Assembly (NCBI GenBank): GCA_024275415.1
Contig: JAJRZD010000049.1
Location: 17,614 to 49,613 of the forward strand
Length of the DNA: 32,000 bases
Reading direction: 5' to 3'
Source: an archaeon
GTDB taxonomy: Archaea; Asgardarchaeota; Thorarchaeia; Thorarchaeales; Thorarchaeaceae
A program made the translations under genes and the position numbers. The stretch's first letter is position 1; the number at the start of each line of letters is the position of its first letter. The notes under the pieces are model-generated. The model did no database searches. It saw nothing but the letters and a program-made list of their open reading frames with translations, and had not been told where the DNA came from. This document shows positions 25,777-27,737 of this stretch, piece after piece.

Positions 25777-26628
25777 TCAGTTATCTTTCTTGTCTGATTT
25801 CCCTTCAAGGATCGCTCTTCGTATTATCTGGATGAGCCTATCTCGATATGAGATGTCAATGGCGACAAGTTCATAGGTCGGGATGCCGAGGATCTGTCCG
25901 ACACGTTCAGGCGTGAGTGCGGTTGGAAGATCTTGCTTGTTGGCAATTCCTAAGATCTTCGCATCTGGAACCTCATCTTTTACAAGTGTTACCAGTTTCT
26001 TACTTCTAAGCACATTCTCAAGTGTGCTGTCTGTAACAATCACTACCACTTGGGCATTAGCAATCATTTTCGCCCATAGAATACTGAATCGGGACTGTCC
26101 TGCAAGATCCCATAGAACGATATTGGCATTCTCCACCTCTTCTGGGAGTTTCTTGATGCTGACGCCGATGGTCGGATCATGGACGAGTGGAAGGGTTTCG
26201 CCTCGTAACAGGTGCAGTGTTGTGGTCTTCCCAACTCCTGCAAACCCTAGGATTGCAACCTTCACCATGGTCACGGCAATCTCATCGACTTTTTCATCAA
26301 ATCCGTCAAGAGGTTGATGATTCTTAGCCAGCTCTATATACTCGCGTTTGAATATATCAACCAATTGCCCCACTTTGTCCTCAATTTGTGCTGAATCATC
26401 TGCCTTATCAGCAATGAAAATGAATGTGAAGTCATCTTGAACAGTGTAGAAGAATCGTGATGTGGATAGGTTCATGAATTCAGTCTTTCCATCAAGGTTA
26501 ACTGTTCCAAGGAAATTCGTTAGGTTCACTAGAAACTCGACAAGACTGCTCCTTGCCTCGCTCTCTGCATACTCTTTTGAGAAGACGATATTTCCAGTTT
26601 TCTCGAGTATGTAGACGCTTCTAATCAC
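25777..26628 (-). CDS. Longin-domain-fused small GTPase (Ras superfamily, mixed Rab/Arf features)
   Basis: N-terminal MIRSVYILEKTGNIVFSKEY...FFYTVQDDFTFIFIAD is longin-like. GTPase motifs: G1 GFAGVGKT, G2 PTIG, G3 WDLAGQ, G4 NKQD. Confidence 0.92.
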   Translation of the reverse strand: MIRSVYILEKTGNIVFSKEYAESEARSSLVEFLVNLTNFLGTVNLDGKTEFMNLSTSRFFYTVQDDFTFIFIADKADDSAQIEDKVGQLVDIFKREYIELAKNHQPLDGFDEKVDEIAVTMVKVAILGFAGVGKTTTLHLLRGETLPLVHDPTIGVSIKKLPEEVENANIVLWDLAGQSRFSILWAKMIANAQVVVIVTDSTLENVLRSKKLVTLVKDEVPDAKILGIANKQDLPTALTPERVGQILGIPTYELVAIDISYRDRLIQIIRRAILEGKSDKKDN

Positions 26629-26630
26629 AT

Positions 26631-27737
26631 CTATTCACTCCAAGTTTCAAATAGCAATTGGCAGTACCTGCTTGCTGTTTCATTGTTTATCTCCTTATCA
26701 ACCAATTTATGCGATATTATTGGGATTGCATATTCAGGCATGAACTTCTCAATTAATGGATTGGTTATCACTGCCCATAAATCCTCCCCTTCAAAGTAGG
26801 ATACGATGCGGTCAGCTTCGAGCACCAATAAGGATTTTTCCACCACTTCACGAGGAAGTGATGTGTTCTGTGCAATCTGATTCAGGGACAAAGGACTTTT
26901 CCGAATTGCTGAAAGAACCGTATAATGTATTCTATTGGTAAGGATCTTGGCAATCTTCTCTCGATCCTCGACAATTGGTGAGTTAGGGTCGTCAACTGCG
27001 ATTGTTGGATTATACCCCTTGTCCGGAGGCGGAGGCGAGTAGAATGCCTTCACCATGGCTAGATATTCCTCTGCAAGTTTGGGGTTTTCCTCAATCACCT
27101 TTGTTATGGAATCAACGGGCGGTGCCCTGTAACAGAATATGTCCTGAACGAGAAAGACCATTTCCTTAGTCTTTCCTATCATTTCCACCTTGACGATTTT
27201 CGAGTTGATGAGAGGTTGAATTGCATTTCGGATGTTCACAGTATCGCTCTGTATCTCATTCTTGAGCCATATTGAAAGACGTGCGGCACTCTCAACACAT
27301 TGAGATTGCATCCTTTCTAGGATTAATGCCGTGGAGGGGGTCAAGAAGACTTCAGCCATTAACTGCTCTTCAGTGACCGAAGGCAACACACTCCGCTTCT
27401 CTATGATCTCTTGTAAGTCGATGGTATCCGGTGATGACCCTAAAAGTTCAAGCAGTAGCCTACTCATCCCTGAGATGGTTTGAGCTTCTGCCCTTGCATA
27501 TTCCTCATCAGACACGATATAGCAAATAATCCACTCAGGATGGTTTGAGTCCATGAAGGAAATGACCTTCCTTCCATCCATCTCTGAAAACTTCAGATTA
27601 GTCTTCGAATCAGTGGAATGCTGAAAGTAAATCTCATTGATTGCTTTCTCGGTAAGAGTTAATGACTCAGGGAATTTCTTTTCCACAATGAACCCATGAT
27701 AATCATCCAGGTGGACGATGAATGCTGCTTCTAGCAT
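26631..27737 (-). CDS. uDENN/longin-like N-terminal domain plus winged-helix domain(s)
   Basis: FIVHLDDYHGFIVEKKFP resembles the hhhxFDxxxGxxhxxxxP start of uDENN/NPR2-type longins. C-terminal HYTVLSAIRKSPLSLNQIAQNTSLPREVVEKSLLVLEADRIV is a wHTH. GGAGGT SD upstream; its stop is 2 nt from the GTPase start. Confidence 0.8.
   Translation of the reverse strand: MLEAAFIVHLDDYHGFIVEKKFPESLTLTEKAINEIYFQHSTDSKTNLKFSEMDGRKVISFMDSNHPEWIICYIVSDEEYARAEAQTISGMSRLLLELLGSSPDTIDLQEIIEKRSVLPSVTEEQLMAEVFLTPSTALILERMQSQCVESAARLSIWLKNEIQSDTVNIRNAIQPLINSKIVKVEMIGKTKEMVFLVQDIFCYRAPPVDSITKVIEENPKLAEEYLAMVKAFYSPPPPDKGYNPTIAVDDPNSPIVEDREKIAKILTNRIHYTVLSAIRKSPLSLNQIAQNTSLPREVVEKSLLVLEADRIVSYFEGEDLWAVITNPLIEKFMPEYAIPIISHKLVDKEINNETASRYCQLLFETWSE

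Follow-up and report, generated by a model that had tools for sequence, protein, structure and literature searches.

What controls the small GTPases of Asgard archaea? Asgard genomes encode dozens of eukaryote-like small GTPases, almost none of which has a known regulator or effector, and operon analysis was listed as an open question by Dey (2016). A locus in a Thorarchaeota (Asgard) metagenome-assembled genome (3.5 Mb in 127 contigs, 92.9% complete) raises this question for a single GTPase. The stretch analyzed here (the window; 32,000 nucleotides, positions 17,614 to 49,613 of contig JAJRZD010000049.1, assembly GCA_024275415.1) contains, in its listing of open reading frames (ORFs), a minus-strand series of three genes that we call A, B, and C (Table 1). 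Gene B encodes an Arf-like small GTPase fused to an N-terminal longin domain, gene A a protein predicted to be built like NPRL2 and NPRL3, and gene C a small coiled-coil protein. We lean toward the reading that A and B, probably together with C, make up a single small-GTPase switch module, in which A would act through a longin platform as the dedicated regulator or adaptor of B. What links this highly conserved longin-Arf-like GTPase to a single NPRL2-built partner and to a small coiled-coil protein is translational coupling, linkage across several Asgard families, and the presence of three paralogous modules in the source genome.

A first-pass annotation of this DNA placed the end of A two nucleotides before a GTG start codon of B, and the junction does read TAG-AT-GTG. 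Read from the sequence, a GGAG (positions 26638-26641) lies within the 3' end of A, 9 nucleotides 5' of this GTG, and the GTG is supported as the start because all orthologues open with MIR at the same position. Coupling of A and B is supported by the 2-nucleotide spacer, the internal GGAG, and the abutting or overlapping genes of the Thorarchaeota orthologues. A read-through fusion of A and B was rejected, as the frames differ and the orthologues keep the genes separate.

The linkage of the two genes was assessed in diverse Asgard genomes, at 40 loci that surround genes of the A family, with ORFs scored against A and B profiles. In Thorarchaeota (family f1), A is followed by B on one strand at all 11 loci; the two genes abut, or share a few bases, when over-extended ORF starts are allowed for. 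The same order is found at both loci of family f19 (gaps of 12 and 14 nucleotides) and at both loci of f7 (gap of 29 nucleotides); in f12, B precedes A. In f9 (four loci), one A paralogue adjoins a 342-347-residue longin-GTPase on the opposite strand, and at the single f13 locus the A/B pair is adjacent in divergent orientation. The whole neighborhood is syntenic within Thorarchaeota, and adjacency there is therefore weak evidence alone. Outside Thorarchaeota, the A-B(-C) unit alone is common to the loci, and this sharing is the informative linkage signal. The genome holds only about 22 small-GTPase matches in 3.5 Mb, yet the linkage recurs in several Asgard families, so that A-B adjacency is far beyond chance. 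The adjacency that the first-pass annotation described at this one locus is conserved well outside Thorarchaeota.

These patterns make it quite unlikely that A and B are only co-transcribed neighbors with no physical or regulatory tie, B being regulated in cis by its own longin. Such an arrangement would agree with the position of many Asgard GTPases, and of those of MK-D1 in general, outside operons with longin or roadblock genes, which makes regulators hard to assign (Tran 2024, PMC10933270), with the many A paralogues that have no neighboring GTPase, and with the Thorarchaeota-wide synteny. The linkage nonetheless persists in f19, f7, f12, f9, and f13, where the surroundings differ, and in the three paralogous modules of the source genome; moreover, stop codons meet or overlap the start codons, a layout typical of subunits that co-assemble.

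Of the three paralogous A/B modules, one is that of the window and the others lie on contigs C127 and C8. On C127, a 379-residue A and a 323-residue B are separated by a gap of 434 nucleotides (L010:1411-2550 and 5-976, minus strand). On C8, the order is A', a 2419-residue single-pass surface protein, B', and a 183-residue coiled-coil protein. The C127 module is followed by a 177-residue, very acidic, and probably disordered protein (L002:661-1194, minus strand), not a C-type coiled coil. In the C8 region (45500-57140, corresponding to L056, with these genes on its minus strand), A' (10602-11639) is A-like and truncated at the end of the contig, the surface protein (3362-10621) has a very acidic tail, B' (2282-3160) is a 292-residue longin-GTPase, and the coiled-coil protein (1728-2279), also acidic, lies 2 nucleotides 3' of B'. 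On contig C115, a 656-residue frame (L005:349-2319, minus strand) matches the complete longin-GTPase of the B profile over residues 1-280 and its longin part again over residues 393-507, and may represent a longin-GTPase-longin protein.

Gene C lies on the strand of B and begins 103 nucleotides 3' of it; AAGGTGA precedes the ATG of C. At most Thorarchaeota loci C adjoins B. Its counterparts in families f19 and f7 encode proteins of 106-110 residues and start 12 nucleotides after B; these proteins open with a helix that looks amphipathic, and their C-terminal half is homologous to the hairpin of Thorarchaeota C (hhalign probability 90.9%, E 1.1e-6; reversed control 3.3%). C is thus likely to belong to the module, as its third member, in Thorarchaeota, f19, and f7. 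Because these counterparts of C follow B in f19 and f7, the sequences indicate that the A-B-C unit is older than Thorarchaeota.

That B is a genuine longin-Arf-like fusion follows from the longin fold of its N-terminal part together with a Pfam Arf match. Residues 121-268 belong to the Arf family (70.1 bits against a cut-off of 22.3; 2e-19), and the best solved relatives of the G domain are Arf1 and Arl1 (about 1e-15). Matches to Pfam SRPRB (weak, E 0.0027) and Gtr1_RagA (E 0.04, 13.8 bits against a cut-off of 22) are both under cut-off, and about 15 residues follow the G domain, with no C-terminal roadblock of the Rag/Gtr type. Switch I is PTIG with T153; GxxGxGKT, T153, DLAGQ, and NKQD are invariant in the B family alignment, and B retains every catalytic motif, including Gln178. 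The first-pass description of intact G1-G4 motifs, combining Rab-like switch II wording with an Arf-like ANKQDLP, therefore holds, as does its observation that B lacks a C-terminal Cys and an N-terminal myristoylation Gly: B contains no Cys at all and no Gly2. The N terminus is a 118-residue longin starting MIRS, not the Arf amphipathic helix with its myristoylated Gly2, and B appears to be an Arf-type switch without the Arf-family membrane anchor.

An AlphaFold2 model of residues 1-120 of B by themselves, built from 18 diverse aligned homologues, has longin topology (bbabbbaa) with a predicted local distance difference test (pLDDT) score of 91. VIA comparison gives Z 11-14 across 110-119 residues with the VAMP7, Sec22, sigma-adaptin, and TRAPP longins, including Z 14.2 with VAMP7 (112 residues, root mean square deviation 2.6) and Z 13.9 with Sec22. 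Foldseek returns 99 matches at E <= 0.001, with E 4.5e-6 to AP-2 sigma, and among the matches listed all are longin or roadblock proteins; an ESM Atlas feature search with this domain gave no usable match. R3 is conserved in 19 of 21 family members, and D74 and D77 in 20 of 21. B identity across Thorarchaeota is 80-90%, compared with 47-71% for A, and the G domain is nearly invariant, which points to strong constraint on B.

Gene A was modeled with AlphaFold2 on 34 orthologues (pLDDT 82, predicted template modeling score 0.80). In the model, the longin (residues 1-117; DSSP: E2-11, E15-22, H30-42, E48-53, E56-63, E66-75, H85-101) is followed by two winged helices (about residues 123-205 and 255-332), separated by a Pro-rich linker, and by a helical hairpin in which P334 is invariant and Y336 and L362 nearly so. 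The two winged helices are mutually homologous (hhalign probability 94.8%, E 5e-8, 104 columns). NPRL2 and NPRL3 have been described as an N-terminal longin plus two or more aaaabb winged helix-turn-helix (HTH) repeats (Levine 2013, PMC3747258), and by its model A has this architecture and about this size. Foldseek alignments of A with NPRL2, NPRL3, and yeast Npr2 span the full length, with weak E-values. The top structure matches of the longin are NPRL2 chains (VIA Z 10.3-10.7), within a range of Z 9-10.7 over 102-118 residues that also includes a Lokiarchaeota longin (Z 10.4-10.6), DENND1A and DENND1B (Z 9.4-9.8, residues 1-114), sedlin, Lst4, and FLCN. The models, VIA, and Foldseek agree that the N-terminal domains of both A and B are longins, as the first-pass annotation supposed. 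hhalign places the two co-linearly over 95 columns at low significance (E 0.003, probability 10%), and we do not use this alignment as evidence of a specific kinship. The annotation also read A as uDENN/NPR2-like; the longin and NPR2-type winged-helix layout stand, whereas beyond the longin A has two winged helices and no central DENN or dDENN part, and a Pfam NPR2 match is lacking. Upstream of A is a 32-codon ORF (27703-27801, minus strand; ATG at 27801, with GGAGG 4 nucleotides upstream) that overlaps the start of A in a different frame, and near it a TATA-like TTTATTTA at about 27811-27818; the ORF may be spurious.

The A family extends well beyond this locus. With an A profile it turns up in 160 of the 251 Asgard genomes searched (in its own family, in 59 of 59), and many genomes carry several paralogues. 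An exhaustive profile search yields 615 clusters at 50% identity, of which the best 150 matches are all family members. The longin has conserved D11, G15, P23, H40, and S60. Outside Thorarchaeota the N terminus reads MPxG....WDxxxG[AT]...AKYPE, and its Thorarchaeota counterpart is L10-D11...G15-F16...P23; the conserved G15 is followed by F here and by A or T elsewhere in the family. In a tree of the family, the Thorarchaeota A proteins form a clade on a long branch, from which we draw no conclusion on A orthology; they appear to be a derived, long-branched form. In the corresponding B tree, the B proteins of Thorarchaeota, f19, f7, and f9 group together (support 88/83).

The tandem winged helices could in principle make A a DNA-binding transcription regulator gated by the GTPase, and a DNA-binding output was part of the first-pass proposal. 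The second winged helix matches Pfam HTH_9 above cut-off and ArsR/SmtB repressors at VIA Z 8.0-8.6 (CzrA 8.6, ArsR 8.3), there are further weak TrmB-, ArsR-, and IclR-type profile matches, and ESM Atlas tandem winged-HTH regulators match residues 120-330 with template modeling scores of 0.59-0.66, normalized to the match. The charge of the protein argues the other way: the pI of the whole protein is 4.9, no family member has a domain that is other than acidic or neutral, and the recognition helices have net charges of +1 and, in winged helix 2, -1 (family mean for the latter helix, -1.2). Moreover, NPRL2 and NPRL3 have the same repeats and do not act as transcription factors; their C-terminal domains are described as forming a large mutual contact surface (PMC8534245). 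Together with the fused forms described below, which place the A module after the transmembrane helix of giant surface proteins, this makes DNA binding by A unlikely.

A modules are also found at the C termini of 588-2548-residue proteins, about 95-115 residues past the last transmembrane-like segment. The giant fusions have a single transmembrane-like segment, several have an N-terminal signal-like segment, and one carries Laminin_G_3 and carboxypeptidase-regulatory-like domains; their sequences suggest receptor-like surface proteins whose cytoplasmic tail is NPRL2-like. A module in this position is in keeping with a membrane-located adaptor or regulator, and not with a free DNA-binding regulator. 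Giant fusions of 1330-2663 residues are represented by P0242, P0247, P0249, P0250, P0251, P0253, and P0321 and by L042:3962-11953 and 12313-16824 on the minus strand. In P0299 and P0310 (1020 and 1046 residues), the A module is N-terminal to SIR2_2 and TPR repeats, an arrangement that recalls STAND or defense-type proteins.

Several observations weigh against reading A as an NPRL2-like partner dedicated to B. First, the A family is not tied everywhere to a neighboring GTPase: A paralogues of f2, f3, f21, f24, and f28 have none within 4 kb. Second, the lead of NPRL2 over other longins as a match for the A longin is less than one Z unit, which is a tie, and Pfam NPR2 (PF06218) does not match A at E <= 1; across the whole genome its best E is 0.22, at other loci. 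A search of the Protein Data Bank with the A profile gave weak winged-HTH matches (E >= 0.02) and no NPRL2, FLCN, or C9orf72, and an ESM Atlas feature search with A gave unnamed archaeal clusters only. A whole-genome search with the Pfam C9orf72-like family found nothing, but its control found nothing either. Because there is no Pfam NPR2 match, we rate the likeness of A to NPRL2 as one of modeled architecture and fold rather than proven homology. Third, A here has lost the Trp of the WD motif and has GF where eukaryotic GTPase-activating protein (GAP) longins have GP, and family alignments show no conserved Arg at the NPRL2/FLCN/SMCR8 arginine-finger position in the longin of either A or B (motif definitions, including GP and the NPRL2 Arg78 finger, from PMC12290439 and PMC8534245). 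The conserved Arg residues of A are only in the winged helices (R204 and R279), and the B longin has only the N-terminal R3. A GAP mechanism of the GATOR1 type is thus unsupported as such. Complex prediction of A with B gave ipSAE values of 0.00 and 0.01, which weigh neither way on binding.

The missing arginine finger would also suit a different role for A, that of an effector or scaffold that binds B in the GTP state only and passes a signal through its winged helices to, for example, C, leaving nucleotide cycling unchanged. Models for such a role are the SRX longin on SR-beta-GTP and the sigma and zeta-COP longins in Arf1-recruited coats, and the fold matches of both longins include SRX-SR-beta and Arf1-bound coat complexes with sigma-adaptin and zeta-COP longins. 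The fusions of A modules to receptor-like giant proteins and to SIR2_2-TPR parts are also adaptor-like. However, the best-ranked relatives with the full architecture, NPRL2 and NPRL3, are regulators, and WDxxxG is common to C9orf72, a subunit of a GAP complex. The computed data do not separate effector from regulator; we regard a pure effector as unlikely.

The switch module that we favor would work as follows. B is an Arf-like GTPase with a longin in place of the N-terminal membrane-binding helix, and A, made from the same mRNA by coupled translation, would act as its dedicated partner. We infer that A and B bind physically, and that the A longin pairs with the B longin to form a two-longin platform against the switch regions, as in NPRL2-NPRL3, FLCN-FNIP, C9orf72-SMCR8, and Mon1-Ccz1. 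This platform would set the nucleotide state of B by affecting GTP hydrolysis or exchange, and the acidic winged helices of A and the coiled-coil C would bind further proteins. With no arginine finger and Gln178 retained, the module could be an Arg-independent GAP, a guanine nucleotide exchange factor (GEF), or a scaffold. Because there is no conserved arginine finger, any GAP action would need to position B's own Gln178; MglB acts on MglA in this way, by positioning the GTPase's own Gln. Otherwise, the platform would be a GEF or scaffold.

A broader interpretation, which we put forward as doubtful though conceivable, is that A-B(-C) preserves, in prokaryotes, the kind of GTPase control by longin heterodimers from which GATOR1-Rag and C9orf72/SMCR8-Arf arose in eukaryotes. 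Here, the A longin would pair in trans with the longin of the GTPase itself to give a self-contained switch with no arginine finger, and A modules on the cytoplasmic tails of giant single-pass surface proteins would couple the cell surface to Arf-like GTPases.

The features of the locus are collected in Table 1. Divergent from the A-B-C series is a gene (27878-30310, plus strand) for an 810-residue protein, which combines a carboxypeptidase-regulatory-like beta-sandwich with an EAP30/Vps36-like C-terminal part (Pfam 1e-8). At 7 of 10 other Thorarchaeota loci examined, this gene is found in synteny with A-B-C. We dropped it as a module member because this synteny is confined to Thorarchaeota and the gene is absent beside the f19, f7, and f12 modules.

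Table 1. Positions of genes, domains, and motifs of the A-B-C locus in the window
Feature	Positions	Strand	Description
Gene A	26631-27737	minus	368 aa, predicted NPRL2/NPRL3 architecture: longin, two winged-helix repeats, helical hairpin
A longin	27384-27737	minus	Residues 1-~118; topology bbabbbaa in model
A winged helix 1	27117-27383	minus	About residues 119-207; aaaa-bbb, DSSP of model
A winged helix 2	26739-26975	minus	About residues 255-333; aaaa-bbb; Pfam HTH_9 26.3 bits, cut-off 23.4
A C-terminal helical hairpin	26634-26738	minus	Residues 334-368; model helices 337-346 and 352-366
Shine-Dalgarno-like GGAGG	27744-27748	minus	6 nt 5' of A ATG; read from sequence
A-B junction	26629-26641	minus	TAG stop, 2-nt spacer AT (26629-26630), then GTG of B; read from sequence
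Gene B	25777-26628	minus	283 aa, longin-fused Arf-like small GTPase, GTG start
B longin domain	26275-26628	minus	Residues 1-118; AlphaFold2 model and structure matches
B G domain	25780-26274	minus	Residues 119-283; motifs read from sequence
B G1, GFAGVGKT	26224-26247	minus	Residues 128-135
B G3, DLAGQ	26095-26109	minus	Within WDLAGQSRF; WDLAGQ is residues 173-178
B G4, NKQD	25930-25941	minus	Residues 230-233, within ANKQDLP
Gene C	25086-25673	minus	195 aa; coiled coil, Pro/Thr/Ala-rich linker, helix-GYIPEEDY-helix hairpin

Both protein families have been published for Asgard archaea. Liu et al. (bioRxiv 10.1101/2020.10.19.343400) report a family with a longin and an NPRL2-type C-terminal domain in most Thorarchaeota and a few Lokiarchaeota assemblies, and their 'NPRL2-like longin domain' asCOGs were used in PMC9834061; A very probably belongs to this family, which our A profile finds to be more widespread (see above). 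Longin-GTPase fusions, which the first-pass annotation took as known in Asgard archaea, have likewise appeared (Klinger 2016, as cited in PMC4917890; Liu 2020; Tran 2024), and B has the same architecture as these fusions of a longin to an Arf-like or 'Rag-like' G domain. The accessible parts of the text of Liu et al. describe no operon with a longin-GTPase, and the papers on Asgard longin-GTPases name no partner; here, a partner is assigned by conserved linkage. We found no description of the conserved A-B(-C) operon in the literature searched. The locus also offers a small, soluble, and matched set of proteins for experiment (283 + 368 + 195 residues), which could show whether longin platforms controlled Arf/Rag-type GTPases before eukaryotes, and did so without an arginine finger.

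Among known systems, A shares domain order and size with the GATOR1 core NPRL2-NPRL3 (yeast Npr2-Npr3), the GAP for RagA/Gtr1, in which the longins heterodimerise and face a GTPase; its 368 residues compare with 362-370 modeled residues in solved NPRL2 chains. Unlike GATOR1, A has no Pfam NPR2 match, arginine finger, or GP, although G15 is present; the presumed second longin comes from GTPase B itself, not from an NPRL3 paralogue; and the GTPase beside A is of the Arf type and lacks the C-terminal roadblock of the Rag heterodimer on which GATOR1, assembled with DEPDC5/Iml1, acts. C9orf72-SMCR8 (CSW), a longin-DENN GAP that acts on Arf GTPases through a longin heterodimer, has an Arf-family client, as A would have in B. 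The WDxxxG motif of the A family (beta1-beta2) is spaced like the essential W33-D34 and G38-P39 of C9orf72 (PMC12290439). In contrast to CSW, A has winged helices rather than a DENN module, Thorarchaeota A lacks the Trp, and the arginine finger, which is in SMCR8, has no conserved equivalent in the B longin.

The remaining comparisons concern parts of the module. DENN-domain Rab GEFs are matched by the longin part of A alone, through DENND1A/B, and the ArsR/SmtB winged HTH is matched in fold by winged helix 2, although the A domain is acidic. In MglA-MglB, a prokaryotic small GTPase is controlled by a dimer of the roadblock/longin superfamily that has no arginine finger, and MglB is a fold match of the B longin (Z 10.9); unlike A and B, MglB is a homodimer of a roadblock rather than a longin, has no winged helices, and is unfused to its GTPase. 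In the SRX domain of SR-alpha with SR-beta, a longin-fold domain sits on an Arf-like GTPase. SR-beta has a transmembrane anchor, and SRX is an effector-type binder of the GTP form. SRX is among the fold matches of the longins of both A and B, and B looks like a covalent version of this pairing.

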